The notes: a model not told the origin generated them from the letters alone. A stretch of 52,593 nt of DNA from Patescibacteria group bacterium (GCA_035288145.1 DATEAX010000028.1:1-52593); one strand, 5' to 3'. Shown: positions 5,040 through 52,593, numbered from the stretch's first letter. Made by a program: numbers and translations.

Positions 5040-6993
5040 CCGGTCTTTTCTTCTTTAATTTCCAAAGCCGGATAAAAAATATGACCAATAAAACCATCCC
5101 GAGCGCGGTGAGAACTTTGACGAGCTGGAGCCAAAAAGACGATTTCGAGGCCTTAACTTGGGGCAAAATATCCCCGGCCGACGCCACCTGCTTTCCTGAT
5201 TTCGCCTTGCTCGCTACCGAACTGGTTTTTGTCGTCGTGCTCGAACTTTTTGGGGCGGCGGCTTTTGAACTGGCGGTTTTCGTCGAGGAAGAACTTATTT
5301 TTCCCACCGCCTGAATGAGCTTAATATCTTCCAGATTTCTGGGCAAAATCCGCCAAGTATCCCGATACAAATTGACAATCCCGGTGATTTCAAAAATATC
5401 TCCTTTGTGCATTTCCGGTTTCTCAATCCCCGTGGCCGCCTGAATATAAATTTTCGCGCGGCCCGTTCCGTCATCAATATAAAAAGTATTCCCCGAAGTT
5501 TCCACCACCGTGCCAGTAATTTTGACTAAATAATTTTCGTAATTTCTGATTTCCCCGGTTTTGATTTCAATCGGTTCGGAATTCAAAGGGATATCTTCTT
5601 CCTCAACGATGTTCTCCTCATCCCCGCCGATTTCTGGGGGAACGATAACATTCGCCTTGGCGGGGGTCGCCTTGGTTGTCCACTGCCATAAATTATTAAA
5701 CCAGGCCCAAGTCCAGCCCTCCTCCCCTTCAGAAAAATTTGTCTCGTCAGCCAACAGACCGTCGGGGAAAAATAGTTTGACCGAATCACCGGTGTTATTA
5801 AGAGCAATGCCTGTTTGAGGACGATAAAATACCAGCCAACTTTTGGCAGGAATCACCGTGCCGTAAGGAATAAGATAATCTTCAAGTAAAAAGTAGGACA
5901 AATTAACGGGAGAAGCCAGCGGGTTATAGAGCTCAACCCACTCGCCCTCGTTGTCCGTGCCCAGAGGATTAGGTAAGAGCTCGGATAAAATCACACTCTC
6001 GCCCGTCGAAGCCCAAAGACCAATTCTTTCCGCTCGGGCTTTCTCTTCAATCGCCTGCCAGGCGGCGTTTTTTAAAACAAAATTATCGGTATCATAGAAA
6101 CTCGCCAGTCCCCGTTCCATCAGCTCAATATTAAAAACCTTGTTTTGAAAAATGATAATTGCCAAAGTCCGGCCAAAAGGATCGAACTGTTCATCCTCTG
6201 ATTTAGAGATAATTAAGTCAACACTTTTCCCCTGGAGAGTCTGAGCCGTATAATCCTTCGCCGGCAAATACATACTCTCGCTGGATTCTGGGCAGTCAAC
6301 GGCCAGCAATCTGACATATGAAGAAAGATCGCTAAGACCCGAGACCTTGATCGTATCGCCGTCAATCACCGAAGTCACCGAGACCGTCCGAATCATGGCA
6401 TTTTCCAAGTCCACCAGCGCCAAGACTTCCGGAGGATATTCGGGAATAATCAATTTACTGTTCGGCGCGCCCGGAGTTCCTCCCTTGACATAGCTTTTTT
6501 GCCAGTTGTCGTCGGAGGAAATTAGGGGATCAATTTTCTCCCAGGAGATATTGTCTCCCGGGTCGGTGGTCCATGTAAATGTTTCGGTGTAAGTACCATC
6601 CTCATTAGTCAGAACGATGGCATCGGCAGGATTGGCAAGAATCATCGATATCTCAACCACCGGGGCTATTACCGCCGGCCAGTGCTCTTTGAAAGCCGTT
6701 TTGTCACGGGCCAAGATTAAAAAATCTTTCGGCAAAATCACTGCCGCCGCATCAGTGATTGTTTTGTTGTCAAAAGTCCAATTATTTAAATTGACGGATG
6801 TCGTGCCCTTATTATAAAGTTCAACCCATTCTAAACCAGTTTCCGGCGTCGGGGCATTGGCCATCACCTCGTTAATGACGACATTCGAATCAACGAGCGG
6901 ATCACTCTCTGCCGCCAAAACTTTTTGAGTCCCTAAAAGAAAGAAAATAAATCCGATAAAAACAAATAACAAAAGATACTTTATTTTCCCCAT
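5008..6993 (-). CDS. secreted, C-terminally membrane-anchored nuclease: LTD - SNase (thermonuclease) - LTD - OB-like domain
   Basis: signal peptide; VVINEVMANAP..EWVELYN (lamin-tail domain) twice; VIDGDTIKV..VRLLAVDCPE..GRTLA..ERGLA (SNase); S/T/K-rich linker and terminal TM helix. Confidence 0.8.
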   Translation of the reverse strand: MGKIKYLLLFVFIGFIFFLLGTQKVLAAESDPLVDSNVVINEVMANAPTPETGLEWVELYNKGTTSVNLNNWTFDNKTITDAAAVILPKDFLILARDKTAFKEHWPAVIAPVVEISMILANPADAIVLTNEDGTYTETFTWTTDPGDNISWEKIDPLISSDDNWQKSYVKGGTPGAPNSKLIIPEYPPEVLALVDLENAMIRTVSVTSVIDGDTIKVSGLSDLSSYVRLLAVDCPESSESMYLPAKDYTAQTLQGKSVDLIISKSEDEQFDPFGRTLAIIIFQNKVFNIELMERGLASFYDTDNFVLKNAAWQAIEEKARAERIGLWASTGESVILSELLPNPLGTDNEGEWVELYNPLASPVNLSYFLLEDYLIPYGTVIPAKSWLVFYRPQTGIALNNTGDSVKLFFPDGLLADETNFSEGEEGWTWAWFNNLWQWTTKATPAKANVIVPPEIGGDEENIVEEEDIPLNSEPIEIKTGEIRNYENYLVKITGTVVETSGNTFYIDDGTGRAKIYIQAATGIEKPEMHKGDIFEITGIVNLYRDTWRILPRNLEDIKLIQAVGKISSSSTKTASSKAAAPKSSSTTTKTSSVASKAKSGKQVASAGDILPQVKASKSSFWLQLVKVLTALGMVLLVIFFIRLWKLKKKRPVEESFGDDFT

Positions 6994-7059
6994 GCTTTTA
7001 TCCCTTTAACCTGCAAAATACAACCCCTGGGGTTTGATTTTGGCCTGAATGGTTAAAAA

Positions 7060-7803
7060 TTATTTTATCTCTATTTCTCCCCCCTTATCTAAATCATTTT
7101 TGGAGATTTCGCCTTCCAAAGATTGGTCTTCGTCGGCCTTTTCGCCCGTCAGCAATTCCTGCTCGGGCGTTTTTTCCGGCGGAGGTGATGCCGGCGGCGA
7201 TGGCGGGGGCGCCTTTGGCGGCGTTAAAGTCCCTTCGCCGTCTAAAATTTGCTGCTCGCGGCTTTCGCTAGCAATTACCTCATCGTGTAAAGCCATAATC
7301 TTGGAAGATATTTCTTGAGGATTGGGGACTGATTGCAAAATAATGCTCTCTTTCTGCTCGCTGGCGGTTTCCACCAAAACATTGCCGTAGGAAAATAGAG
7401 TCGGCAACAAGCCGTTGATGCTTGATGTGACATCCTGAACCCGAAGAACTGAAAGTTGAGAGATTTTCCGACCGAAAAAGCCTACTTGGGTGATTTCAAC
7501 AATTTCCTGACGGGTGATGATATAGCAATTGTAATAAAAAGACATCCAGGCGACAAAGGCGAAAGTGATGCCTACGAGATAATAAGCCGAAAGGACTAAG
7601 GTGAGAAAATTCACCGCCAACCCCTGAAAAATTCTTCGGTCAAAATTAAAGACATAAATAATTACGAGAATAATAATAGGAATGACCAAAAATAAGAAAG
7701 AAAGCACAAATTGACCTAAAAAAGAGGCCCAGTGGCGCCGAGCAAAGACAACAATCTCTTTTTCATCTTTTGCACCCGGAATTGGAAAATGATATTCCGC
7801 CAT
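7060..7803 (-). CDS. membrane protein with bacterial PH (YdbS/YdbT-like) domain and Pro-rich acidic tail
   Basis: FARRHWASF followed by two TM helices and a PH-like beta region; PPKAPPPSPPASPPPE tail. Confidence 0.55.
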   Translation of the reverse strand: MAEYHFPIPGAKDEKEIVVFARRHWASFLGQFVLSFLFLVIPIIILVIIYVFNFDRRIFQGLAVNFLTLVLSAYYLVGITFAFVAWMSFYYNCYIITRQEIVEITQVGFFGRKISQLSVLRVQDVTSSINGLLPTLFSYGNVLVETASEQKESIILQSVPNPQEISSKIMALHDEVIASESREQQILDGEGTLTPPKAPPPSPPASPPPEKTPEQELLTGEKADEDQSLEGEISKNDLDKGGEIEIK

Positions 7804-7815
7804 TTTTTTGCTTTT

Positions 7816-8058
7816 TTAGATTTTAAAAATATCTTTTAAGTTTTTGCCCCAATCAAGGCGGCTGATGGCAAGAATCGAAACAACGATGATGACAAACATC
7901 AGAATCAAATAAATTAAAACGGCCCGACCGATGGCGTCACCCTTAAACCGTTTGGCCAGAACTTGAATCAGGCCATAGATATTAAAAATGATATAGATAA
8001 ATAGAAAGATGAACCAGATGATTAAGAAAATATACATAATAATAAATTTAAAATTCAA
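7816..8058 (-). CDS. small membrane protein (80 aa)
   Basis: two hydrophobic helices; ATG ORF in the operon string. Confidence 0.5.
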   Translation of the reverse strand: MNFKFIIMYIFLIIWFIFLFIYIIFNIYGLIQVLAKRFKGDAIGRAVLIYLILMFVIIVVSILAISRLDWGKNLKDIFKI

Positions 8059-41896: not shown

Positions 41897-42748
41897 GTGA
41901 ACCATTTGTCACGCCAATGCCAGCGTCCTGGTTGCCCAACTCCGATTGCCGAATTTGTCGACCCGGAAGTCCTCTATTGTGGTTATTGCCAGTATGATTT
42001 GATACGCGGCATCCCGGATCTGGTCAGCAGCTATCTTGATGGCCGTTCCCTGCCAGATAAAGACATCCGTTTCCTCTTCAACCACTTAAAAGTAGAGACA
42101 AAAGAAGAGTTTTGCCCGGCTCGAGAATTCTCCTTGTACCTCGGATTCCACAAGGCCTACTTTAGCAAAACCCTTCAAAAGGATTGGCTCTCGGGCAAGA
42201 AAGTCAAAAGAAGCGACCCTCGGTGTCCGAAGAGACGCATCATCTGGATGATTCCTTTTGAGGAAACTGTCAGGATTTTGGACATCGAGCGCAACTGGAT
42301 TACTGTTTATCAAGCGGCCAAATTGGGCGTGAAACACCAGACACTGCTCCACTATGTCCATTTGGACTACTTTGGACCGACGCACCAGCACTATACCGGA
42401 GCATTGATGATTTCCCGGTCATTTCTTCCCCAATTTAAAGAGCGATATGCCGCAATTGTCAAGGAAAGAAGGAAGCTGAAGAGTCGTCGCTATTGGCAAA
42501 AAGACCGCTTAACTCCCGAGATAATCGGCTCGGTGCTCGGAGTTTCGGGGGGATCGGTCAGCACCTGGATAAGAAAGGGATGGCTACCGGCCAAGCGCTT
42601 CGGCCACTGGTGGCTGATTAAAAGACCGGATTTCCGGGAATTTCTCGAGCGGCTCGCCCGTGGCGAATTTTCCGTCCGTCCTCTGCCACCTGATAAGTGT
42701 CGAGCAATTCTGGAGTCCGCACCTTGGAAAAACCTCCCGATGTCTTAG
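41897..42748 (+). CDS. putative DNA-binding regulator: N-terminal Cys4 zinc ribbon plus three tandem excisionase/MerR-type (HTH_17-like) winged-helix modules
   Basis: CQRPGC..YCGYC; three modules each ending in W/h..I.r..h..h pattern, best one LTPEIIGSVLGVSGGSVSTWIRKGWLPAKRFGHWWLIKRPDFREFL; TTG 41906 has better RBS spacing than GTG 41897. Confidence 0.65.
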   Translation: MNHLSRQCQRPGCPTPIAEFVDPEVLYCGYCQYDLIRGIPDLVSSYLDGRSLPDKDIRFLFNHLKVETKEEFCPAREFSLYLGFHKAYFSKTLQKDWLSGKKVKRSDPRCPKRRIIWMIPFEETVRILDIERNWITVYQAAKLGVKHQTLLHYVHLDYFGPTHQHYTGALMISRSFLPQFKERYAAIVKERRKLKSRRYWQKDRLTPEIIGSVLGVSGGSVSTWIRKGWLPAKRFGHWWLIKRPDFREFLERLARGEFSVRPLPPDKCRAILESAPWKNLPMS

Positions 42749-42778
42749 CCCCGCACCATTTGGTGCGGGGCTTTCGTT
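42747..42778 (+). terminator. intrinsic terminator after the regulator gene
   Basis: AGCCCCGCACCA-TT-TGGTGCGGGGCT then TTCGTT. Confidence 0.65.
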
Positions 42779-42785
42779 AAAAAAA

Positions 42786-42814
42786 TTGACAAAATTTTCC
42801 GTCTTCGTTACATT
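42786..42814 (+). promoter_or_regulatory. sigma-70-type promoter of the lipoprotein/peptidase operon
   Basis: TTGACA 42786-42791, 17-nt spacer, TACATT 42809-42814. Confidence 0.55.
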
Positions 42815-42818
42815 AAGG

Positions 42819-42864
42819 GGCTTTACCCTGAAACCCGCGGGTAAGGCCTTAGCCAAGCGGGTTT
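42819..42864 (+). promoter_or_regulatory. 5' leader with two mutually exclusive hairpins
   Basis: hairpin 1 GGCTTTACCC 42819-42828 / GGGTAAGGCC 42839-42848; hairpin 2 AAACCCGC 42831-42838 / GCGGGTTT 42857-42864. Confidence 0.4.
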
Positions 42865-42914
42865 AGCATATTGAAAACAGATTCTGGCCAGTCATCAGAA
42901 AAAGGAGGAAACCA

Positions 42915-43475
42915 ATGAAAAAGCTGATGGCCGTAGTCGTGCTTTTGGCAATCGTGGGGTTAATTTACGCCTGCGTTGCCAAAACAGAAAAGACCATTCC
43001 GGAACCTTCGGGATTCCGGCTCTCCCGAACTCCCCAGGCAAGCATCGATTTGGTCCAAGACAGGGATTCTCAAAACATCGCGATTTCCTGGGTGAAAGAT
43101 GGGCAAGGCAGAATTGCCACGGTTAATGAGCCGATTGGCGAAGAGGTGACGATTGGCACCCCGCAGAATGAGGATTCAGAGCGGGGCGTTTCGGTTAACA
43201 TCAATCTGCCCAAAAGGGAAATCCAGAAGTACTGGCTCTGTCTTGAGGGCAAGAAGGGTCAGAAGTGCCGACTTGAAACCAGCTTTCTTGACGCAAGGGG
43301 TCGAATCTGGCCGAAAAAGCCGATGGGATTCTCTTTCCGGCTCCATCGTGAAGGCAAGGTCTTCCGGGCTTACCTTCTGCTCACCTGCAATCCCAAAAAA
43401 ACACCATCTCAAGCAATGACCTTATGGGAAGTTGCCAAAAAGGATGTTTTTCCGGGTCATGGAGGCAAGCGATGA
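42915..43475 (+). CDS. putative lipoprotein (186 aa), unknown family
   Basis: signal peptide ending GLIYAC; AGGAGG RBS; stop overlaps next start (ATGA). Confidence 0.65.
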   Translation: MKKLMAVVVLLAIVGLIYACVAKTEKTIPEPSGFRLSRTPQASIDLVQDRDSQNIAISWVKDGQGRIATVNEPIGEEVTIGTPQNEDSERGVSVNINLPKREIQKYWLCLEGKKGQKCRLETSFLDARGRIWPKKPMGFSFRLHREGKVFRAYLLLTCNPKKTPSQAMTLWEVAKKDVFPGHGGKR

Positions 43476-45424
43476 AAAGGCTCTTCATTCTCCTTGTCCT
43501 CCTTGCCGAGCCGACCTTTGGTTCGGAAACTTGGCATCTTCCGCCGGAAAACTGGGGACGGCTCCATATCCCCGCGGATGAAAACTACTCGACCGCGGGC
43601 CAGCTTTCTTCGACCATCGCCCAAGGCACGCGGGTGGGGGTTTTCGGCCGGGCCGGGGCAAATCTCGATTATGGCGGCTGGCAGCTCAAAACCACCAGCT
43701 TCTGGCTACCAAATTCCGCCACCGGCGAAGGAGAAGAATTCTGGCAGGCCGTCGGCAATGTCTATCTCAAACCAGGGGGATTTCCCCTGGCTTTGACCGG
43801 CGCGGGAGCAACTGATTACCCGACCACTGCGATGTGGGCAACCCAGGGCTATGCCGTGCCGCCGCTCTTCGGTCTTCCCCAAGTAAGCCAAAAGGGCAAC
43901 TTTTATCCTTACGCCGCTGACGGCAAGACCACCATTGCCCAAAATGGTTGTCTTCTCTGCAGCATCCTTGCCGGGGCCAAGCGGATCAACCGTTGCCCGT
44001 GGAGCATTGAATTCTACAACGACTGGCTGGCGCTAAACCACGGCTTCAATGTCCGCGATATCCGCTGTCCGATTGCCGCCAACCTGGTGGGATTCCAGTA
44101 CATCGGCGAGTTTAAGTGGAACATCGCGACGATTGAGAAGTATCATGCCCGCGATTGGCATGAGGTCGGTAAAATGGGAGTCAAGCGGCGAAACGGCAAA
44201 TGGGGCACCCACTTTGTCGGCATCTCGCCCGGAGTGATTTTGCCCGGTAAGATTTTGGGGATGATGGACCCAGCTTGCCGGTCGGATTACTTTAACCAGA
44301 CGCGCTATCGGCCGCGCCGGATTAAGGTTTTCGCCCCGGTCGTTCCCCAGGACAGCGCCAGCTTGGTGAGCATCCCCTATCTTTGGCGGCAAAACGGCTG
44401 GTGGCTCGGGACGCCGGTTTATCCGCCTGACTGGGGAACAATTGCCTCGGCTTCGGAGAATTCGTCTCCGGATGTTTCGTCGCGGCCAGCGGCCAATCAA
44501 TTGGCCGGCGCAACCCTGGCAAGTTCCGGTCTGGCCCGGCTCGATGCTTTTACCAATCAAAACGTCTTTCTCGAAAGGGTCGAGACGCCGCGGTTTATTT
44601 TGACCCCGGAAAATTCCGAGGAGGTCGCCGAAGGAGCAACTCTGGATACCGATTTCGGCAGTGCTCCCGAAGACGATGATTCACTCGAGATTGACGAGGA
44701 AGATTTGCTCTCCGAGCCGCCGCCGGACGATCATTCAGTCATGGGACTGCTGGCCGCACCGCAGGGTCGATACATCTTCTTCCTTTCCGGCCCGCCCAAT
44801 GCTCCTTACCAAGTGACTTGCTGGGGGATGGATAACCTCGGGAAGCCGATGGCGGACAAAATCCTTGCCGGCGTCCTTGACGCAAGCGGCAAAGCAAGTA
44901 CCTTTGTGGATTTTGACCCAGGTATCACCGCCTTCAAACTGGGTACTATCCGTCAAATGAGCGTCGGCTCCGAAGTGAGTTTCTCTTCGGAAGTGACCGA
45001 AACCTCGGCGACGGAGTTTTCCGTAGAGAATGCCGACCGAAGCGCCGGCGTAAAAGTCCTTTCATTGGCCGAGCCGTCAATCGGCGCGACGGTCTGGACG
45101 CGGGGCAAGGTAATCTCGCTTGCACCAGAGATTATTGTCGAAGCAACCGAGGTCAAAATCCTTGGAAGCGGTCTTCCGACCATCAAACCGCTCGGGATTG
45201 CCGGAAAATGGCCGACGCTTGCCAACGGACTGCTGGCAAAAATTGCCGGCAAAGTTGCCACCGTCAATGGTTCAACCGCGATTATCGATGATGGCGGAGA
45301 AATCCTGACATTGACCGCGGTCGACAAACCGCTCAAAACCGGGGACTTTGTGACTCTCGTCACCGTTCTTCGGGCAAACAAAATCCTCCGGCCAAGACCC
45401 GGCTCAATTCAAATCTTGGATTGA
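43472..45424 (+). CDS. secreted protein with papain-like Cys-His-Asp domain (C39/NlpC-P60-like order) and C-terminal OB-like module
   Basis: signal peptide MKRLFILLVLLAEPTFG; QNGCLLCSILAG, GKWGTHFVGI, MMDP; acidic linker; tail KIAGKVATVNGSTAIIDDGGEILTL resembles the tail of the 5008-6993 nuclease. Confidence 0.6.
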   Translation: MKRLFILLVLLAEPTFGSETWHLPPENWGRLHIPADENYSTAGQLSSTIAQGTRVGVFGRAGANLDYGGWQLKTTSFWLPNSATGEGEEFWQAVGNVYLKPGGFPLALTGAGATDYPTTAMWATQGYAVPPLFGLPQVSQKGNFYPYAADGKTTIAQNGCLLCSILAGAKRINRCPWSIEFYNDWLALNHGFNVRDIRCPIAANLVGFQYIGEFKWNIATIEKYHARDWHEVGKMGVKRRNGKWGTHFVGISPGVILPGKILGMMDPACRSDYFNQTRYRPRRIKVFAPVVPQDSASLVSIPYLWRQNGWWLGTPVYPPDWGTIASASENSSPDVSSRPAANQLAGATLASSGLARLDAFTNQNVFLERVETPRFILTPENSEEVAEGATLDTDFGSAPEDDDSLEIDEEDLLSEPPPDDHSVMGLLAAPQGRYIFFLSGPPNAPYQVTCWGMDNLGKPMADKILAGVLDASGKASTFVDFDPGITAFKLGTIRQMSVGSEVSFSSEVTETSATEFSVENADRSAGVKVLSLAEPSIGATVWTRGKVISLAPEIIVEATEVKILGSGLPTIKPLGIAGKWPTLANGLLAKIAGKVATVNGSTAIIDDGGEILTLTAVDKPLKTGDFVTLVTVLRANKILRPRPGSIQILD

Positions 45425-45433
45425 GCCATTTGC

Positions 45434-45466
45434 CCCCGCACCATTCTTTGAAGGGTGCGGGGTTTT
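45434..45466 (+). terminator. intrinsic terminator after the peptidase-like gene
   Basis: CCCCGCACC / GGTGCGGGG stem then TTTT. Confidence 0.7.
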
Positions 45467-45478
45467 CAATTACACCAC

Positions 45479-45509
45479 TTGACTTTTTTTTGCCATAATG
45501 TGATATAAT
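45479..45509 (+). promoter_or_regulatory. extended -10 promoter placing the TSS at or next to the ATG of 45516 (leaderless)
   Basis: TTGACT 45479-45484; TG-A-TATAAT 45501-45509; ATG at 45516; 12-mer TGTGATATAATT also at 41868-41879. Confidence 0.5.
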
Positions 45510-45515
45510 TAAAAT

Positions 45516-46028
45516 ATGAAACAACCAATTCTAAAAATCATTCTCATCATCCTCGCGGTCGCGATTCTCGGAACCGGGGTGGCCTACGGCACCATCAACT
45601 TGGTTAAAAGGAAAGAAAATCCCCCTTCACCCACCCCAACGCCGAGCATCACCCCCCGAATATCGCCGACCTCGCCGGCAACCACACCCACATTTGATAC
45701 GACGCCAAAATCCGCTGAAGTATTGACTGCCGCTTTACTCTGGGCAAGACGCGACGAGCTGGTGGGACAAACCGTCATTGTTGAAGATGTCGTTACTTTT
45801 CTTTCCAGCTGTCCGACAGTGGAAGGCGTCCGGCCCGAACAATGTTCGACCGGTCTTTATCTTGGAAGCCAGGAAGACAACAACTTTGCTCTCTATAAAA
45901 ACGGTAAGACAATCACCTGTCGAGGCATGCCCGCCACCTGTGAGGGTTTTGCCAAAGACCAAAAAAAGCGTTTTTCCGGGACTTTGGTCAAAAGCCAACT
46001 GACCACCTATTATCTTAATGTTCTCTAA
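45516..46028 (+). CDS. membrane-anchored protein with P/T/S linker (170 aa), unknown function
   Basis: N-terminal TM starting at residue 5, PSPTPTPSITP linker, Cys-containing globular domain. Confidence 0.6.
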   Translation: MKQPILKIILIILAVAILGTGVAYGTINLVKRKENPPSPTPTPSITPRISPTSPATTPTFDTTPKSAEVLTAALLWARRDELVGQTVIVEDVVTFLSSCPTVEGVRPEQCSTGLYLGSQEDNNFALYKNGKTITCRGMPATCEGFAKDQKKRFSGTLVKSQLTTYYLNVL

Positions 46029-46059
46029 GCCGCCTTTTTTCTAATTTACGGGTAAAAAC

Positions 46060-46088
46060 TTGACAGGGCCTTAAAAATCCTCTATACT
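46060..46088 (+). promoter_or_regulatory. sigma-70-type promoter of 46145-46567
   Basis: TTGACA 46060-46065, 17-nt spacer, TATACT 46083-46088. Confidence 0.55.
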
Positions 46089-46144
46089 ATCCTCAAATCC
46101 GAGCGATCGGCTTCTCCCGCAGGTTCACAGGGAGGTGATTTCCG

Positions 46145-46567
46145 ATGACACTCGGCGAGGCGAAAGAGATTTTGAAGGGGTATTACCCTTTCAGAATCCA
46201 AAGAAAACGATTGCGTCTTAACCTAGACGCGCTGGCCAAAGAAACAAACTACCAACCGCTGGTAGATGGCCCAACTCAAAAGAGCTGGCCGATATCAGAC
46301 CTGATCCCCAACGAATCGCCGGATAAGCAGGCACGATTTCGTGCCGCTTTCCGGACGATCTGGGAAGCGGAAAAACTGAAGGTGGAAGGGTTGTGGGACG
46401 ACCCCTGGTGGACCGATCTCAAGGTAGAACCGTTTTCGAAGCGGCAGACCTCCGAGATCTATCTCTGGGTTTCCAAGAGTTTGTCCCTATCACAAATCCG
46501 AATCCTCGAGGACACCCTCGAGCAAATTGCCCCTGAAGCAGTTTGCTTTGAAAGGGTGGCCGCATAA
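46145..46567 (+). CDS. orphan protein (140 aa)
   Basis: GGAGGTGA RBS 6 nt upstream; own promoter and terminator. Confidence 0.55.
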   Translation: MTLGEAKEILKGYYPFRIQRKRLRLNLDALAKETNYQPLVDGPTQKSWPISDLIPNESPDKQARFRAAFRTIWEAEKLKVEGLWDDPWWTDLKVEPFSKRQTSEIYLWVSKSLSLSQIRILEDTLEQIAPEAVCFERVAA

Positions 46568-46586
46568 CCGAACTTGCGGGAGTTTC

Positions 46587-46630
46587 TGCCCCGGTGTTGT
46601 TTTCGCCCAACTCAACCGGGGCATTTTTTT
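46587..46630 (+). terminator. intrinsic terminator
   Basis: TGCCCCGGT 46587-46595 / ACCGGGGCA 46615-46623 then TTTTTTT. Confidence 0.7.
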
Positions 46631-46668
46631 AAGTATTTAATATTTGAAGTCCGTTTGAGTCCGGAAAT

Positions 46669-47289
46669 TTAATCCAATGGCGTCGGGGTGGGGGTGGGTG
46701 CGAAGAGACAGGTGATTGGGTCCTTTATTTCACCTGTAGATTCATTGCCCGATGGATCCCGAAATTTTACCCAAACCGTTTTGGTGGAAAAGGGGTTGCC
46801 GCAGGGCGAGCCGCCATAGCGGTCATCAGCCAGATTCCAATTCGTCCGGGTGGTTTGGTATGCCTCGTATGGGCTCCATTTGGTCGTCGGAGGGTTGCCG
46901 GCAAGATAATTATTGGTAAATTTCATCGCCTGAACCGTGCCGTTGTTATCAGTAGCGCTTAAATTCAAAGTCACCGCGGTCCCTCCTGTTACTTTCGGAG
47001 CATCATTATTGATTTTGATGGTGCCGGTCGGCGGGGTAATGTCCCCAAGCACTTGGGTCTCCAGGGTGTTGCTTAAGATATTGTGGCTTCCCTGACTATC
47101 GGTATAATTTAGACTAGCGGTATTTTGAATTGTGCCAATAACCTCGGCTTTAAAAACCTGGGTGGAAATAAAGATGCCGGCAGCAAGGAGTGTCAGCCCA
47201 TACAAGCCAAAAATAATTTTCTGCCGTTTAGCCAGACGGTGAAAAGTTTTTTTAAGCCAGGCGATAATTTTTTTGGTCATTGGACTCAA
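46669..47289 (-). CDS. membrane-anchored surface protein (206 aa), Ig-like/DUF11-like beta domains
   Basis: N-terminal TM; beta-rich; PTPTPTP tail; 10-nt gap to the LVIVD gene. Confidence 0.55.
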   Translation of the reverse strand: MSPMTKKIIAWLKKTFHRLAKRQKIIFGLYGLTLLAAGIFISTQVFKAEVIGTIQNTASLNYTDSQGSHNILSNTLETQVLGDITPPTGTIKINNDAPKVTGGTAVTLNLSATDNNGTVQAMKFTNNYLAGNPPTTKWSPYEAYQTTRTNWNLADDRYGGSPCGNPFSTKTVWVKFRDPSGNESTGEIKDPITCLFAPTPTPTPLD

Positions 47290-47299
47290 TCTCCCCTAT

Positions 47300-49570
47300 T
47301 TAATTTGCCGTTACCTGAAAAGTGACTGTAATCGTGCTCCCCGGTTGGCCCGTGGGGGCAATGCTTTGAAATTGGAAACCGCTGAAATAAAGAACATTGT
47401 TGTTAAGAGTAAAACTGTCGTCGCCAGCGGCTTCGGTGACGGTCGAGCCATTGACTTTGGTCTGACCCGAAACATAGGTGGAACCGGCAGGGACGGCATC
47501 AGCTAAACTTAAGGCCGTCATCGTCTGGCTGGTGGGGTTGGTAATCGTTAAAGTGTAGGCGATTGTTCCGCCGCGGCTGACCGATGAGGGTCCGGTTTTG
47601 ACAAGTTGAAGCGGGGTCGGGGTCGTCCCGACTGAAGCAATGTCTATCAAATAATTATCGTCGGTTAAGAAGGCGTAACCCCCGGAAGCGGTCACGGCGC
47701 GGACAACACCGACAACACCGCCAGGATATGGCAATGTCAGAAAAGCCGTCTCTTGGGGAGCGGCGGGATTGCTAACATTGAAAATCTGGAGACCCTTAGT
47801 GGTGTTGCTGGAGATGGCGACATAAGCCGAAGTTCCCGAGACATATACCCCGAACGCCGAGTCCTTAGTCACTGTCCTGGAAACCTGCTGAAGAGCGCTG
47901 GGATTGCTGATGTTCAAGATATAGAGACCGGCGGTTCTGGCCGCCACATAGGCAAGGTTTCCGGAGATAACCACATCGTTGGCAAAATTAGCGGTCGTAA
48001 ATGAACTCAATATTCGTGGAGCGGCGGCATTGGCAACATCAATGCTCTGAACCGCGCCGGTGCTGGTGCCGCTACCATCAGCAACAATTGCCGTATTGCC
48101 GCTTACTGCGACGGAAAAAGCCTGTCCAGGGGTATCCAGCTGACCAAGAATACTGGGAGCGGCGGGATTACTGACATTGGCAATCACCAAACCGGCCAAA
48201 TAATCGGCAATGTAGGCCTTGCCCGAAGCCACCGTTACCCCGTAGCCGGAATCGGGCAAGTTCAGAGTTCCTGTAAGTGTTGGGCTAAGGGGATTTTGGA
48301 TGTTGATGATTTTGAGAGTTTGATTATCCGTGGCGTAAAGGTAATTGCCCTCAATGGTCAAGTCGTTGACTGCTCCGAGGGTGAAAGTGGCGATATGAAC
48401 CGGGGCATTGGGCTGACTGATATTGTAAATCCAAATGTCGGCCTTGTTGCCGCTAGAAACATTGTTCACTGCGTAAAGATAAGACCCGCTTATGGCAACC
48501 GCCGGCACATTAATCACCTTGCCTAAACGCCCCAAGACCGATGGACTCGAGGGATTGGTGATATTAATGGTTACCAGACCGCCTTGGCCGCTGGCAACGA
48601 CTGCAAACCCGCTGACAACGGCTGGCCGGCCGCGCAAGAAGCCGGTGAGAGCCACAAAAGAAGCGCTCTGGGGCAAAGCCGGGTTAGAAAGATTAAAGAT
48701 TTCCAAACCGTTATTCGTCGTAATGCCAGAATATTCGGTCATAAAAAGGTAGCTGCCGAGAACGGTCAAACCAGAGGCCGCCCCTCTGGTAATTACCCTG
48801 TTGACCAATTGGGGACTGCTGGGATTGGCAATGCTTACAACAAGAAGTCCGCCGGTAGAAATGTTGGCATCGGCGACATAGGCATAGCTACCACTTAAGC
48901 TAACATCCATGGCGACGGCGGCGGCCAGCGTTCCTAAAACCCGGGGAGATGCGGAATTGCTGACATCAGCGGTAATCACGCCGGTCGTATCGGCAATCAC
49001 CGCGGTTGTTCCGGTAATGGCCGATGCCCGGGCAAAGTTCGGCGTATTTAAAGTGCCGAGAACACTGGGAGCGGCAGGATTGCTAATGTTGATGATTGCC
49101 AAACCGAGGGTGCCGATACTCACATAGGCCTTGGTCCCGGAAATGGTTATCCCGTTAATTGCCTCTCCCAAAGTTAGGGAACCCGCCACGACCGGATTAG
49201 CGGGATCGGTGACTTGAAAAACCTTAAAATTCTTATCAGCCCCGACATAAGCGTAATTTCCCGAGACAGCGATAGCAAGGAAGATGGTCGAATCAAAAAA
49301 ACTTTTAACAAGAATCTTGCTCGGTGTGCTTACATCAGCGATATGGAAACCAAGCGATGAAGTCGTATAAACGTAATTTCCGGCTATCGCCACTTGATAG
49401 GTCTCGCCGCTCATCGCCGGCGTTTTACCAATCCACTGGGCGGTTTGGGCTTCGGCTTTGGGAACAACTTTACCCGCAAAGTTAAAAGAAAGCACACTTG
49501 TCAGCAAGAGCGACAAAACTATCCCTTGGAGAACTTTAATAATGATAAATCCCCGTTTGGCCTGTTTCAA
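47300..49570 (-). CDS. secreted LVIVD-repeat beta-propeller protein with C-terminal DUF11-type domain
   Basis: signal peptide; ~40-aa repeats (SGNYAYVA.., GL.I.NISNPAAP, GTL); tail GGTIAYTLTITNPTSQ..AVPAGSTYVSG. Confidence 0.8.
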   Translation of the reverse strand: MKQAKRGFIIIKVLQGIVLSLLLTSVLSFNFAGKVVPKAEAQTAQWIGKTPAMSGETYQVAIAGNYVYTTSSLGFHIADVSTPSKILVKSFFDSTIFLAIAVSGNYAYVGADKNFKVFQVTDPANPVVAGSLTLGEAINGITISGTKAYVSIGTLGLAIINISNPAAPSVLGTLNTPNFARASAITGTTAVIADTTGVITADVSNSASPRVLGTLAAAVAMDVSLSGSYAYVADANISTGGLLVVSIANPSSPQLVNRVITRGAASGLTVLGSYLFMTEYSGITTNNGLEIFNLSNPALPQSASFVALTGFLRGRPAVVSGFAVVASGQGGLVTINITNPSSPSVLGRLGKVINVPAVAISGSYLYAVNNVSSGNKADIWIYNISQPNAPVHIATFTLGAVNDLTIEGNYLYATDNQTLKIINIQNPLSPTLTGTLNLPDSGYGVTVASGKAYIADYLAGLVIANVSNPAAPSILGQLDTPGQAFSVAVSGNTAIVADGSGTSTGAVQSIDVANAAAPRILSSFTTANFANDVVISGNLAYVAARTAGLYILNISNPSALQQVSRTVTKDSAFGVYVSGTSAYVAISSNTTKGLQIFNVSNPAAPQETAFLTLPYPGGVVGVVRAVTASGGYAFLTDDNYLIDIASVGTTPTPLQLVKTGPSSVSRGGTIAYTLTITNPTSQTMTALSLADAVPAGSTYVSGQTKVNGSTVTEAAGDDSFTLNNNVLYFSGFQFQSIAPTGQPGSTITVTFQVTAN

Positions 49571-49599
49571 ACTCCCTCCTTTTAATGCGGTCTATATTT

Positions 49600-49627
49600 A
49601 TTATAAACCGACATTTCATTCTGTCAA
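49600..49627 (-). promoter_or_regulatory. sigma-70-type promoter of the LVIVD operon
   Basis: minus strand TTGACA (49627-49622), 16-nt spacer, TATAAT (49605-49600). Confidence 0.5.
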
Positions 49628-49635
49628 GTAAAATT

Positions 49636-49670
49636 TTAAAAAACAATCCCCATCCGTATGGATGGGGATT
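49636..49670 (-). terminator. intrinsic terminator of the phosphatase-like gene
   Basis: AATCCCCATCC 49646-49655 / GGATGGGGATT 49660-49670, T-run on the minus strand. Confidence 0.7.
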
Positions 49671-50104
49671 TAACCGCCGTGCTTGAGGGAAAAATTGCGC
49701 CAAAAGTTCTCTTGACTGCCGGTTTCAACCGGTCCCGCTTTCTCCATCACCTGATGGAACGAAAGATTCCTTTCGCGAATCAGCCACAAGCCAGCCATCA
49801 GATTCGTCCTGCCCTTACCATAACGGCTGTGAATAAGAACAGGATGCTTCAGAAGTATCTCGTGGTAAAGAATTTCAAAAAACTCTTCAAGTTCGCGGCA
49901 AGACGGCGTATCACCCTCTTTAAGATAAAGGGTATAATGGGCGATGCACCGACGTTTGATCTCTTCTTCCGTTTCTTTAGAGAGCGGCTCTAAAGAGATA
50001 ATCGCTTCAATCCCTTTATCAAAAAGAAACTTGATATCCTCTGCTTCAGGCATCTCTGACCCGGCCAAGACACCTTCCTCGAACCATTGAAATCGGTCAT
50101 GCAT
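49670..50104 (-). CDS. dual-specificity/PTP-fold phosphatase homologue with Ser in place of the nucleophile Cys
   Basis: VLIHSRYGKGRTNLMAGLWLI aligns to the HCxxGxxR(S/T) P-loop; Ser codon AGC at 49826-49828. Confidence 0.7.
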   Translation of the reverse strand: MHDRFQWFEEGVLAGSEMPEAEDIKFLFDKGIEAIISLEPLSKETEEEIKRRCIAHYTLYLKEGDTPSCRELEEFFEILYHEILLKHPVLIHSRYGKGRTNLMAGLWLIRERNLSFHQVMEKAGPVETGSQENFWRNFSLKHGG

Positions 50105-50206
50105 TCATCTCACCCCCTTTCACCCCTTTGTATCTTGTTATCCGTTAGAATAGCACAGTTTCCTCCGAATTGCCAGAACAAATCCGTGATAAAAACGGTC
50201 GTCTTA

Positions 50207-50245
50207 CAAAAAGAGCCCCCACACCTTGCAAGCAGGGTGTGGGGG
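50207..50245 (-). terminator. intrinsic terminator closing the vWA operon
   Basis: CCCCCACACC 50216-50225 / GGTGTGGGGG 50236-50245; minus strand continues CTCTTTTT. Confidence 0.75.
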
Positions 50246-50250
50246 ATAGA

Positions 50251-51147
50251 CTAGTCGGTAATCGCCAGCGGCCGCATCGCTCTTTCGACGATGGGCCCTA
50301 CCCCCGGGGAAACCGGGAAAGTGAACTCATCGCGCCTTGTCCACGTCGGCTCCTTAACCAGAAACTCGACGTGAAGCCAGGGAGCTGTCTGATGGAGGAA
50401 AACCACCGCCAGCTCCTTTTCGCCAGCGTTCTCGGCAATGGCAATCGCCCGCTCAAGGCAGACATCGGCGTTCGGCTGGTCCTTTACGACCACGACCTTG
50501 GCCGGATAGATATTCGGCAGGATCGGGGTGAAGGTCTCCGCCAGCCAAAGTCCGGAGCTGGCGGTCTTGCCGGAGAAATGATTGACCGCCTCTTCGGCCA
50601 GCTTGAAATGGGCCACAGTTCTCGTCCTGTCCATTTGCTGGGCCTGCGTCGGCAGCATCATTTCCCGGCTCGACCGATTAACTTCGCCCGCCAGCTGGTT
50701 GGTCTTTTCGATGAGCAATTGGCCGTAATGGCGAGAATCCTCGTCTTGGCGGTCAATATTGCCTAAAACGGAGACAACCTGTCCGCCGGTGCGGGGAAAA
50801 CCGGTACCCATAAGGTAATTGAACTGAAATTCATCCTCATTGGGTTTGAGGGAAATCGCCCGATTCATCGTCCCGAGATCGTCGATATAGAGCCCGCGCA
50901 GACTGGTCGGGATTTCCGATGCCTCCTCAATCGTTGTCTCGTGTCCTTCGGCGTCAATCCCCATATGCCGGTAGCAACTGGCGAGAAAAATCGCCCGGTC
51001 CCGCTCCGGGTCATAGATATCGGTCTTGCCGATTATCTCCCGTACACGAACCGCCTTCAGCGTACCGGCTTTCTCGAGACACCGGGCCTTTTCCATGCCG
51101 CCGTCGTGAGCGCCGCCGTCAATCATCGCAGGTGTTCTTGTTTGCAT
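50251..51147 (-). CDS. soluble protein of unknown family (298 aa), last gene of the vWA operon
   Basis: ATG 51147 is 6 nt after AAAGGAGGTGA (the track start 51165 lies inside that RBS); no motif recognised. Confidence 0.6.
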   Translation of the reverse strand: MQTRTPAMIDGGAHDGGMEKARCLEKAGTLKAVRVREIIGKTDIYDPERDRAIFLASCYRHMGIDAEGHETTIEEASEIPTSLRGLYIDDLGTMNRAISLKPNEDEFQFNYLMGTGFPRTGGQVVSVLGNIDRQDEDSRHYGQLLIEKTNQLAGEVNRSSREMMLPTQAQQMDRTRTVAHFKLAEEAVNHFSGKTASSGLWLAETFTPILPNIYPAKVVVVKDQPNADVCLERAIAIAENAGEKELAVVFLHQTAPWLHVEFLVKEPTWTRRDEFTFPVSPGVGPIVERAMRPLAITD

Positions 51148-51161
51148 CTTATCACCTCCTT

Positions 51162-51890
51162 TCATCCATCAATGGCCGTAAATGTTACCGGAAATTGCTT
51201 TTGAGACCAGCTCTTGAAAAACTGGTTAAAGATTCTCCGGAGCCGTTCGTGATCTTTAAGATGCACGGCCTGTTTTTTGTTGACCAAGCCCGGATACCAG
51301 TAAATCTTGATGTTTACGGGCGGGCTATTCGGTCTTGGACAAACCTTCGCCATCTCCTCAAGAATCTCGGAGTCGCTGCGCGCTTTAAGATAAGCCCTCG
51401 TCAGAGTCAACTCCTTCGAAGATTGGAGAAGATCGGAAATTACCACCAGATGCCACTTGCCGGTACCGGACTGGGTCAAAACCTCGTTTACAAAGTCGAT
51501 TACCTCAAGAAGCGGGGTACTGCCAACCCTGGGATTCTCGGCAAAGGCCCGCTCAACTTTGACCACCATCTCCTTGACCTGACTTTGTCTAGATTTCCAG
51601 GCCGGGGGAGAAATCTGGAGGGTATGTTGAGCAACGATCCGATAACAATAGGCCTCGCCGGCGGGAGCAAAGAAAATCATTTTCCACTTGGCGCCGGAGG
51701 AATACTTCAGGGCAAAATCTCTGGCCGCCTGCTTAGCATGATTTAAGGCGGCATCGGCTTGAACTACCAAGCTGTGGCTATTGTCGACGATCAAATACTC
51801 CTCCTGATAAGTATTACCAGTGTCCATCGGCATGCACCCAGGGAGAAAAAGCCAAAGGGTTAGAAAAACCATCTTTCTCAAGGCTTGCAT
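51162..51890 (-). CDS. vWA-domain lipoprotein with complete MIDAS motif
   Basis: lipobox LFLPGC; YLIVDNSHSL (DxSxS), GSTPLL (Thr), HLVVISD (Asp); ATG 51890 with CAGGAGGTGG RBS. Confidence 0.75.
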   Translation of the reverse strand: MQALRKMVFLTLWLFLPGCMPMDTGNTYQEEYLIVDNSHSLVVQADAALNHAKQAARDFALKYSSGAKWKMIFFAPAGEAYCYRIVAQHTLQISPPAWKSRQSQVKEMVVKVERAFAENPRVGSTPLLEVIDFVNEVLTQSGTGKWHLVVISDLLQSSKELTLTRAYLKARSDSEILEEMAKVCPRPNSPPVNIKIYWYPGLVNKKQAVHLKDHERLRRIFNQFFKSWSQKQFPVTFTAIDG

Positions 51891-52578
51891 CGTCACCACC
51901 TCCTGTATTCCCGTCCATCGAGCATTCGGCAATCCGGAAGCCATATCTTGCTAAAGTTGGACGAAGCTCCTCGACGGTCGTCGTCAAAGTGTGATTGATG
52001 AGTCGATTGACCTCCTCGGCTGAACGGCGGATTCTTTCTTCCAGCTCGCCAATCCGACGCTGAAGATGCCGCTGGATTCTCTCTTGATGTCTGACTCTTT
52101 CAGCCCGCTCCAGCTCGTTGTGATCCTGCTGCATCTTTGCCCGAAAAGCGTTAAACTTCTTAATCTCGCTCTCGATACCTCGGCTAAGGGTGATATCCCT
52201 AAGCTCTTGGGCGATTTTTGTCAGGATCTTATCTGTCTTATCATCAATCGCCTTGGCCTTATCAAGAAACTTGGCCGCCAAGTAACTAATGACCGGAATT
52301 GGGGCAATGTTGGCAATGCCAAGAGACAAACTCGCGGCATCAAAACCCTCTAAACCGCCAATGCCGGCACGTAACAGACCAAGAGCCGCGGTAATAATCA
52401 AGAATATACTACCGCCGACGATTCTTAACCGGGCGAGTTCGTGGGCTCCCCAGATTAAAGCGACAACAACACCGAATGTCAGCAGATAGGGCAGGGCGAC
52501 AAAAGAACCTTCAGTACCCCGGTAGGCCTCGGCAATCACCAAGAATGTCAAGCTGCTGTCAATGCTCGCAAGGAACAT
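51814..52578 (-). CDS. membrane protein with three to four N-terminal TM helices and a long charged coiled coil
   Basis: hydrophobic first ~105 aa, then KILTKIAQELRDI..ELERAERVRHQERIQRHLQRRIGELEERIRR; 3' end overlaps the vWA gene by 77 nt. Confidence 0.6.
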   Translation of the reverse strand: MFLASIDSSLTFLVIAEAYRGTEGSFVALPYLLTFGVVVALIWGAHELARLRIVGGSIFLIITAALGLLRAGIGGLEGFDAASLSLGIANIAPIPVISYLAAKFLDKAKAIDDKTDKILTKIAQELRDITLSRGIESEIKKFNAFRAKMQQDHNELERAERVRHQERIQRHLQRRIGELEERIRRSAEEVNRLINHTLTTTVEELRPTLARYGFRIAECSMDGNTGGGDDASLEKDGFSNPLAFSPWVHADGHW

Positions 52579-52593
52579 CGCTCCAACCTTAAC

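Follow-up and report, generated by a model that had tools for sequence, protein, structure and literature searches.

A rare three-gene operon in a Patescibacteria contig links a predicted vWA-fold lipoprotein to two proteins of unnamed families

Three genes kept together in ten independent loci

We analyzed a contig of 52,593 nucleotides from a metagenome-assembled genome (MAG) of a Patescibacteria group bacterium (GCA_035288145.1 DATEAX010000028.1:1-52593), referred to below at its full length as the window, and focused on a three-gene operon at its end, the genes of which are numbered 1 to 3 in their order on the minus strand. [quoted passage not shown] The features of the operon are as follows (ORF, open reading frame; aa, amino acids; nt, nucleotides).

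51814..52593, minus strand: 3' part of gene 1 (residues 203-461 of 461 aa), an ORF that is open at the window end
51162..51890, minus strand: gene 2, a 242-aa predicted lipoprotein with a predicted, divergent vWA fold and full MIDAS
50251..51147, minus strand: gene 3, an ORF for a 298-aa cytoplasmic protein of an unnamed family
51814..51890, minus strand: overlap of the gene 1 end and the gene 2 start, 77 nt, out of frame, as given by the coordinates
50207..50245, minus strand: intrinsic terminator hairpin, CCCCCACACC...GGUGUGGGGG then CUCUUUUU, as given by the fold energy

A preliminary description of this DNA had held that a failure of the three genes to co-occur outside this genome would speak against their being a unit. 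We compared ten independent loci, all of which were reached via relatives of gene 3 (the window, L005, L007, L010, L011, L012, L014/15, L016, L017, and L018), and found that the order 1-2-3 is kept in all ten, with genes 1 and 2 directly upstream of gene 3, at protein identities to the window proteins of 16-56%. When every ORF in the ten loci was compared with every other by BLAST, no further common gene was detected except an integrase in two loci. In L012 (positions 6014-7987), genes 1 and 2 are fused into a single ORF of 657 aa, in which the signal-peptide segment of gene 2 persists, now a fifth hydrophobic helix that separates the vWA domain from the coiled-coil segment; this retained helix would therefore place the vWA domain on the outside of the membrane and the coiled-coil segment on the inside. 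The L012 ORF is a gene-fusion ("Rosetta stone") link between genes 1 and 2. The co-occurrence of the genes is thus borne out, with a partial fusion in one locus, and we conclude that, as far as the comparison of sequences can indicate, the three genes (from here on, the triad) hold as a functionally linked unit.

The triad was met in few places. Pattern scans of the GTDB (185,579 species representatives) with the motifs of gene 2 gave no relatives, tblastn searches of PLSDB plasmids with two gene 3 family proteins and of INPHARED phages with the window gene 3 returned nothing, and neither did pattern scans of the IMG/VR viral contigs with genes 2 and 3. A scan of JGI metagenomes gave as the only relative a contig with an identical gene 2 product, and literature searches gave no description of the triad. 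We conclude that the triad has a rare and patchy distribution and that integrative elements carry it at least in some cases.

An operon of exactly three genes

The three ORFs all lie on the minus strand in the same direction, and the G+C content of the operon is 0.531 compared with 0.438 in window positions 1-41800, in agreement with the G+C-rich minus-strand operon of the preliminary description. The ribosome-binding site (RBS) of gene 2, CAGGAGGTGG, is located at 51896-51905 and that of gene 3, AAAGGAGGTGA, at 51152-51162, where it overlaps the stop codon of gene 2; both are of the GGAGG type. That gene 2 begins within the last part of gene 1 suggests translational coupling, and similar overlaps are seen in L007, L010, L014, and L017. 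The terminator that had been proposed downstream of gene 3 is a G+C hairpin of 10 bp with a fold energy of -23.3 kcal/mol (z = -4.11), and none of 200 shuffled sequences was equally stable. Because this hairpin lies 3' of gene 3, we place the end of the operon at ~50207 and assign the next gene, a homologue of dual-specificity phosphatases (DSPs), to a transcription unit of its own.

At its other end, the operon extends past the window. The frame of gene 1 is open to the last window base, contig L001 adds 83 nt and still no stop, and, in the L005 homologue, amino-acid conservation persists upstream of the ATG that had been proposed as the start 15 nt inside the window. Two contigs, L006 (which carries P0005, came from the alignment-based search, and is 99.2% identical over 1599 nt) and L013 (with a gene 2 product that is 100% identical), show the full-length gene 1 product to be a protein of 461 aa, the start of which lies 621 nt beyond the window end, behind AAAGGAGG; ~202-207 N-terminal codons are thus located beyond the window end, and the proposed start is superseded. 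Because the true start of gene 1 lies beyond the window, AAGGTTGGAG, which had been listed with the strong RBSs of genes 2 and 3, is internal coding sequence and not an RBS. Upstream of gene 1, a 225-nt A+T-rich spacer is followed by a divergent gene for a 631-aa GHMP-kinase-like protein. The operon therefore consists of exactly three genes, and the further partners that the preliminary description had thought possible upstream are not found there.

Gene 2 encodes a predicted, divergent vWA-fold lipoprotein

The N terminus of the gene 2 product is a predicted signal peptide with the lipobox LFLPG-C19. The lipobox is present as described earlier and is non-canonical: with Pro at position -2 (L-P-G-C), it departs from the consensus [LVI][ASTVI][GAS]C, and P0004 has A-P-G-C. 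The lipoboxes of the homologues (LLLGC, LLQGC, ALGC, IISC, LTGC, and LAAGC) are mostly canonical; once start codons had been corrected, a signal peptide and a lipobox Cys were seen in nine of the ten homologues, and the remaining one, from L017, has a signal/anchor segment without Cys.

The motifs DNSHS, GST, and ISD, which had been read as those of a vWA domain, correspond to D36-x-S38-x-S40, T125, and D153. All are present, and D36, S38, S40, and D153 do not vary across ten homologues, in which position 125 is occupied by either Thr or Ser. An AF2 model of the protein, computed from a 2-sequence alignment, reached a predicted local distance difference test score (pLDDT) of 70.5 and a predicted template modeling score (pTM) of 0.71, with strands (E) and helices (H) in the order E-H-E-E-H-H-E-H-H-E-H-E, in which H165-170 and H173-183 are counted separately. 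In the model, D36, S38, and S40 directly follow strand 1 (E29-35), T125 is located in the loop between H101-118 and H127-139, and D153 directly follows the fourth strand, E145-152; the DxSxS motif, the Thr loop, and the Asp after strand 4 thus agree with the placement of MIDAS residues in vWA domains as defined in PMC7159879 and with that in CglB (PMC9946355). A Foldseek search of the PDB with the model gave 25 matches at E<=1e-3 (3e-5 to 1e-3), nearly all of them vWA domains, including those of Ku80, CMG2/ANTXR2, ITIH1, 4fx5, NorD, and Sec24, with TM-scores of 0.31-0.48 across the listed matches. The six-stranded alpha/beta Rossmannoid architecture and the strand order of the model are those of a vWA fold, and we regard the support for the fold as moderate because the model rests on two sequences.

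Sequence profiles did not recover this relationship. The window protein has no Pfam or NCBIfam match at E<=1 and no PADLOC or PHROGs match, three of its homologues have no Pfam match, and PDB profile searches with 2 and with 10 sequences returned no vWA chain. We accept, on the strength of the model and the conserved motifs, that gene 2 probably encodes a divergent vWA-fold lipoprotein with a functional-looking MIDAS, outside every curated vWA sequence family. The MIDAS is predicted to bind a divalent cation.

Gene 1 encodes a membrane protein with a charged tail

The full-length gene 1 product begins with a helical region of ~200 aa that terminates in a strongly basic stretch before the first transmembrane (TM) helix. 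According to hydropathy, four hydrophobic (TM) helices follow at full-length residues of about 205-309; these are succeeded by the basic stretch KFLDKAKA after TM4, a charged segment at about residues 316-425 (~110 aa, ~29% Glu+Arg), and a C-terminal tail. The helices and the charged segment are as the preliminary description had them. The segment itself, there called a coiled coil, is probably one, and we word this with caution because coiled-coil families matched below threshold only. By the positive-inside rule, both termini of the protein would be cytoplasmic. In an alignment of ten homologues, TM1 carries Asp or Glu in all ten, the end of TM3 carries Arg in all ten, and the end of TM2 carries His in 8; read by eye, the same alignment has an acidic residue (Asp/Glu) in the second outside loop in every case.

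Searches of Pfam, NCBIfam, PADLOC, and PHROGs with gene 1, which for Pfam included the extra homologues, revealed no family beyond coiled-coil noise (in PADLOC, LeoBC at E 0.003 and 14.7 bits), and a sequence-profile search of the PDB gave nothing significant.

We also note that the differences between strain variants (L006 and L004) cluster at window positions 52071-52116, in the coiled-coil segment of gene 1. In L006, a GAG to TAG change at window position 52116 (full-length codon 362) creates a nonsense codon, which would delete the last 100 residues, that is, most of the coiled-coil segment and the tail, and is joined by two missense changes; in L004, a stretch of 23 nt in this segment contains five changes. 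The cluster reflects either a locally variable segment or assembly noise at contig ends.

Gene 3 encodes a cytoplasmic protein of an unnamed family

The gene 3 product has no TM segment and no signal peptide. A word-indexed search of 5.8 billion proteins returned the protein itself (which NCBI names "hypothetical protein, Patescibacteria group bacterium") and one 56%-identical relative only, and an exhaustive HMMER search of 1.84 billion representatives gave 31 proteins at E<1e-3, mostly of 290-325 aa and, among those checked, mostly singleton metagenome clusters. The window protein has no match in Pfam, NCBIfam, PADLOC, or PHROGs, and Pfam, PADLOC, and NCBIfam gave noise only for 26 family members, one of which showed a weak REase_II match in PADLOC. 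The protein was thus rightly called soluble and of no recognized family, and, on profile search, both gene 1 and gene 3 fall into no characterized family.

The family is defined by clear motifs. In an alignment of 26 sequences (A4), an N-terminal loop, G-A-N/H-R-G-G (G12-x3-G16-G17), has invariant G12 and G16; D46, R51, and D89 (the last in the motif A-I-D-D) are invariant as well, as are S160 and R176 in the C-terminal half, where H180 is nearly so. Thr-Asp forms the last two residues in 26 of 26 members (window positions 50251-50256). Hydrophobic residues stand before this Thr-Asp, and the preceding 20-60 residues are highly variable in length and sequence.

The sole likeness that recurred in the searches, without reaching significance, is to short-chain dehydrogenases/reductases (SDRs). 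Against PDB profiles, gene 3 matched SDRs at E 0.056 with the full profile and at E 0.009, the best value, with a profile of the N-terminal domain, and the FabG and SDR models of NCBIfam match single family members at E 0.04-0.06. The G-rich loop (G-x3-G-G) follows the first predicted strand, D46 aligns with the Asp of SDR strand 2, and the helix and the next strand align with those of 7-alpha-hydroxysteroid dehydrogenase and gluconate-5-dehydrogenase (E 0.009-0.06). In contrast to SDRs, gene 3 falls below every curated threshold, has no YxxxK motif, and carries an extra C-terminal domain of ~165 aa, for which a PDB profile search (C-domain profile A8) gave no match, as well as the terminal Thr-Asp. 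An AF2 model from a 2-sequence alignment had a pLDDT of 36.6 and was unusable. We treat a Rossmann/SDR-like nucleotide-binding fold of the N-terminal domain as a possible lead and not as a result. The idea that gene 3 is a second, degenerate vWA protein was rejected, as hhalign of A7 against A5 gave a probability of 0.2%; by eye, the spacing of GANRGG, D46, and D89 does not fit SIR2, macro, P-loop, Toprim, methyltransferase, or E1 proteins.

Chromosomal and integrative-element settings of the triad

The close relatives of the window triad occur in ordinary chromosomal settings, beside sigma-70, an aminotransferase, or rpsM-rpsK-rpsD-rpoA. In L012, L017, and L018, which are distant and of high G+C content, the triad is directly upstream of, and co-directional with, ATPases of the TraG/TrwB/FtsK/DUF87 type. 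Behind gene 3 of L012 come genes for an ATPase-like protein of 919 aa, an HTH_17 protein, and a tyrosine integrase; this arrangement recurs in L017, where the ATPase is DUF87/FtsK/TraG-like and IS21 and an N6/N4 methyltransferase lie nearby. A gene set that would suit an integrative element (HTH_17, integrase, and FtsK/TraG-like ATPase) is thus seen in L012 and L017 and in part, with a type IV coupling protein (T4CP), in L018. It is absent from L014/L015, and the window has a G+C-rich island and an HTH_17 gene without an integrase. The triad of L016 lies near a NACHT/STAND ATPase. We propose that the triad is an accessory function that moves horizontally.

Comparison with known systems

The closest functional precedent for gene 2 is CglB, a vWA lipoprotein adhesin of the Agl-Glt gliding machinery of Myxococcus xanthus, whose vWA domain (MIDAS residues D56, S58, S60, T182, and D211) was recognized by AlphaFold and not from sequence (PMC9946355). 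In both proteins an N-terminal lipobox Cys is followed by a vWA domain with complete MIDAS, and both have dedicated envelope partners. CglB, however, comes from a diderm, in which it is a lipoprotein of the outer membrane; it has 416 aa, an additional beta-jellyroll domain, and 16 further Cys residues, and it works with GltABCHK. The gene 2 product has 242 aa and, beyond the lipobox Cys, a single conserved Cys, and it is paired with two orphans, one a 4-TM/coiled-coil protein and the other cytoplasmic; between gene 2 and CglB, no similarity of sequence was detected.

The vWA-MoxR ternary systems (Kaur, Burroughs, Iyer, Aravind 2020; PMC7159879) resemble the triad in being three-component operons of patchy distribution, and their vWA domains, like that of gene 2, have one Asp at the end of strand 1 and another at the end of strand 4. 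They differ in their defining MoxR AAA+ ATPase and VMAP-type third components, which are absent in all 10 triad loci, and in that their vWA protein is cytoplasmic, whereas the triad vWA has a lipoprotein signal. The TerY-phosphorylation triad, which Anantharaman, Iyer, and Aravind are said to have delineated in 2012, reportedly combines the TerY vWA protein with a PP2C phosphatase and a Ser/Thr kinase. It is like our triad in having a vWA protein in a three-gene unit, and the window has a phosphatase-like gene next door; it differs in that neither gene 1 nor gene 3 matches a kinase or PP2C and that the window neighbor, a separately transcribed homologue of the DSP type in which Ser replaces the catalytic Cys, is not conserved with the triad. 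We regard the analogy to the TerY and vWA-MoxR systems as thematic only.

Zorya, with ZorA and ZorB, joins a membrane protein that is polytopic and carries a long coiled-coil tail in the cytoplasm to a membrane-anchored partner that has a binding domain outside the cytoplasm, and cytoplasmic partner(s) complete the system. The likeness of the triad to Zorya is one of architecture only: the partner in the triad is a cleaved lipoprotein, which cannot supply the TM Asp of MotB/ZorB, and the conserved TM acid is in gene 1. A ZorA/MotA-like stator, considered from its architecture, was rejected: neither the Zor models of PADLOC nor MotA_ExbB gave a match, and a TM Asp is lacking in the partner. As the preliminary description had surmised, the triad as a system fits nothing described, and the defining partners of the TerY and vWA-MoxR systems are absent; by exclusion, it is a new three-component kind built around a known fold.

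A possible envelope-spanning complex

The reading that we tentatively prefer, at somewhat less than even confidence, is that the three proteins form one envelope-spanning complex in which ligand binding by the vWA/MIDAS domain is coupled to a cytoplasmic, probably nucleotide-binding protein. The gene 2 product would be exported and tethered by a lipid anchor to the outer face of the cytoplasmic membrane, where the divalent cation bound by its MIDAS would bind an acidic residue of a ligand. The gene 1 product, with its four TM helices and a buried conserved acidic residue, would serve as the membrane platform; its short outside loops, one of which always has Asp or Glu, could dock the vWA domain, and its cytoplasmic parts would comprise the N-terminal helical domain and the charged, probably coiled-coil tail of ~110 residues. 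The gene 3 product, a probable nucleotide-binding (Rossmann/SDR-like) enzyme, would be held or regulated by these cytoplasmic parts, possibly with its invariant C-terminal Thr-Asp as the element that docks on gene 1. Binding at the surface, where the target might be a phage, a component of the matrix, or a host or partner cell, would thereby be coupled to a cytoplasmic activity.

This reading draws on gene order, co-occurrence, the fusion, the fold-level assignment of gene 2 as a vWA protein, the conservation of its MIDAS, and the lipoboxes, which are observations; what belongs to the proposal is the topology, the assembly of the proteins into a physical complex, the direction in which they are coupled, the ligand, and the biochemistry of gene 3. 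Several points weigh against it. The topology comes from hydropathy and the positive-inside rule, and the mutual binding of the three proteins and the transmission of a signal between them are what we infer. No vWA sequence profile detects gene 2, be it in Pfam with 6 homologues or in the PDB profile search with 10 sequences, and its AF2 model comes from a 2-sequence alignment at a pLDDT of 70 with TM-scores of 0.31-0.48. For gene 3, the Rossmann/SDR signal is marginal (best E 0.009), the C-terminal half is unmatched, and the structure model failed. The nonsense codon of gene 1 in strain variant L006 may mean that the intact system is dispensable, and the triads of L014/L015, L005, and L007 stand among housekeeping genes with no sign of mobility.

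A bolder version of the complex, which we consider rather unlikely, is a trans-envelope sensor-effector that works as an integrin-like outside-in switch and is spread by integrative elements. At rest, the MIDAS would be filled by the acidic residue of the second outside loop of gene 1, and an external ligand would compete for the MIDAS; this ligand might be the surface of a host cell, a mating partner, or the receptor-binding protein of a phage. The change would be relayed via the 4-TM bundle, with its buried Asp/Glu and its Arg, and via the coiled-coil tail, so that a Thr-Asp-docked Rossmann-fold gene 3 enzyme that uses NAD(P) or nucleotides would be released or activated.

Alternative explanations

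Two alternatives differ from the coupled complex mainly in the thing that is sensed and in the output. One is that the triad is a conflict module on integrative elements, for anti-phage defense, abortive infection, or entry exclusion, in which the pair of vWA protein and gene 1 would detect phage or incoming-DNA machinery and gene 3 would act as the cytoplasmic effector, such as an enzyme that consumes NAD(P) or modifies nucleotides. We judge this to be unlikely but deserving of serious weight. It is consistent with the T4CP/FtsK-type ATPases that adjoin the triad in three of the ten loci, two of them with HTH_17 and an integrase, with the NACHT/STAND ATPase and a DUF4420 gene near another, with the position of the window copy at the edge of an island of atypical G+C content, and with the rarity, patchiness, and singleton clusters of the family. 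The layout of a membrane sensor with a cytoplasmic Rossmann-like protein also resembles known defense designs. Yet no component matched any of 5027 PADLOC models beyond noise, the plasmid, phage, and IMG/VR searches were without relatives, several loci are plainly chromosomal, amid ribosomal and metabolic genes, and no effector signature of a nuclease, protease, TIR, or SIR2 protein was recognized in the triad. The other, to which we give a low probability, is a plain adhesin apparatus for the epibiotic lifestyle of the candidate phyla radiation (CPR): the vWA domain would bind the host, gene 1 would be the anchor, and gene 3 would be an enzyme of maturation or maintenance, and there would be no signaling. 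Here the parallel between the MIDAS-complete vWA lipoprotein and CglB, the surroundings in the window island (several ORFans that have hydrophobic segments at the N terminus, and an LVIVD propeller/DUF11 protein), and the origin of the window from a Patescibacteria MAG all fit. However, the family also occurs in contigs of high G+C content (0.57-0.65) that do not look like CPR, beside DNA-transfer genes, and a strictly kept cytoplasmic protein and the long cytoplasmic domains of gene 1 are unexpected for a passive anchor.

The position of the triad directly upstream of, and co-directional with, an ATPase in L012, L017, and L018, with an integrase in L012 and L017, raises the idea of a minimal conjugation-like DNA-transfer machine, in which the vWA lipoprotein and gene 1 would form or stabilize a mating junction served by the TraG/FtsK-type ATPase. 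This we hold to be improbable: the window, L005, L007, L010, and L014/15 have no such ATPase nearby, the ATPases of L012, L017, and L018 are not detectably alike by BLAST, and no VirB4, VirB6, VirB8, or relaxase signature was found. Still further down in probability, and in our view hardly credible, is a housekeeping factor for assembly or cofactor insertion with the vWA protein as a co-chaperone, as in NorD, CobT, BchD, and ViaA. Foldseek does match the NorD vWA domain as well, and some loci lie amid core genes, but the obligatory MoxR/AAA+ partner is absent in all loci, the gene 2 vWA carries an export signal whereas chaperones of the NorD/CobT/BchD/ViaA type are cytoplasmic, and the family, with no relatives in the 185,579 GTDB representatives as scanned with the gene 2 motif patterns, is far too rare.

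Significance of the triad

Should the three proteins work as a single machine, the triad would be a counterpart in bacteria to integrin-style signaling, with a metal-dependent surface binding domain wired by way of a dedicated membrane protein to a cytoplasmic enzyme. For two of the three protein families, no relatives could be detected, and the triad is present in Patescibacteria, a group in which the cell surface and the attachment to hosts are little understood. Since integrative elements carry it in unrelated bacteria of high G+C content as well, it could represent a new mobile class of surface-sensing, exclusion, or defense system. Three unnamed protein families are now defined by clear diagnostic motifs. 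We note that the novelty is by exclusion, that conserved hypothetical operons are common in metagenomes, and that the function of the triad is one that we infer.

Other features of the window and its flank

The operon lies in a block of ~11 kb (41897-52593, continuing ~0.6 kb past the window) with a G+C content of 0.518 compared with 0.438 in the rest of the window. The block contains ORFans of 186, 666, 170, and 206 aa with N-terminal hydrophobic (signal-like) segments, together with the following features.

41897-42748: HTH_17 excisionase-like gene, at the far end of the block
47300-49570: LVIVD-repeat beta-propeller/DUF11 surface protein
49600-49627 and 49645-49670, minus strand: promoter and hairpin, the promoter directly after the 11-bp hairpin that closes the DSP gene
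49670-50104, minus strand: DSP-type phosphatase homologue (PF22785 Tc-R-P, E 8e-11; PF22784 PTP-SAK)

The block is flanked by a PAP2 gene and tRNA-Phe on one side and by the GHMP-kinase-like gene on the other, with housekeeping genes around, and no integrase was seen in it. It looks like a horizontally acquired island of surface proteins. The tRNA-Phe gene as an attachment site of the island is not supported, as the island is on the 5' side of the tRNA gene and the PAP2 gene lies between them.

The active-site loop of the DSP homologue reads HSRYGKGRT, compared with HCx5R(S/T), with the catalytic Cys replaced by Ser; the protein is probably a pseudo-phosphatase or a substrate trap, as judged from this loop. 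The gene forms its own transcription unit between two terminators. It had been put forward as a possible partner of the three genes, and we rejected it as a fourth component: a terminator separates it from the triad, and it is beside the triad in no other locus. A sigma-70 promoter that matches the consensus at 12 of 12 positions (TTGACA, 16 nt, TATAAT) is located just upstream of the LVIVD surface-protein gene.

Just past the window end, the GHMP-kinase-like gene is located at positions 2344-4239 of L013 (minus strand). Its 631-aa product has the N-terminal motif GGGLGSTG, a Pfam match at E 0.0013, which is below threshold, and a long C-terminal extension without a match. Near it on L013 is a low-complexity, Glu/Ala-rich ORF of 118 aa.

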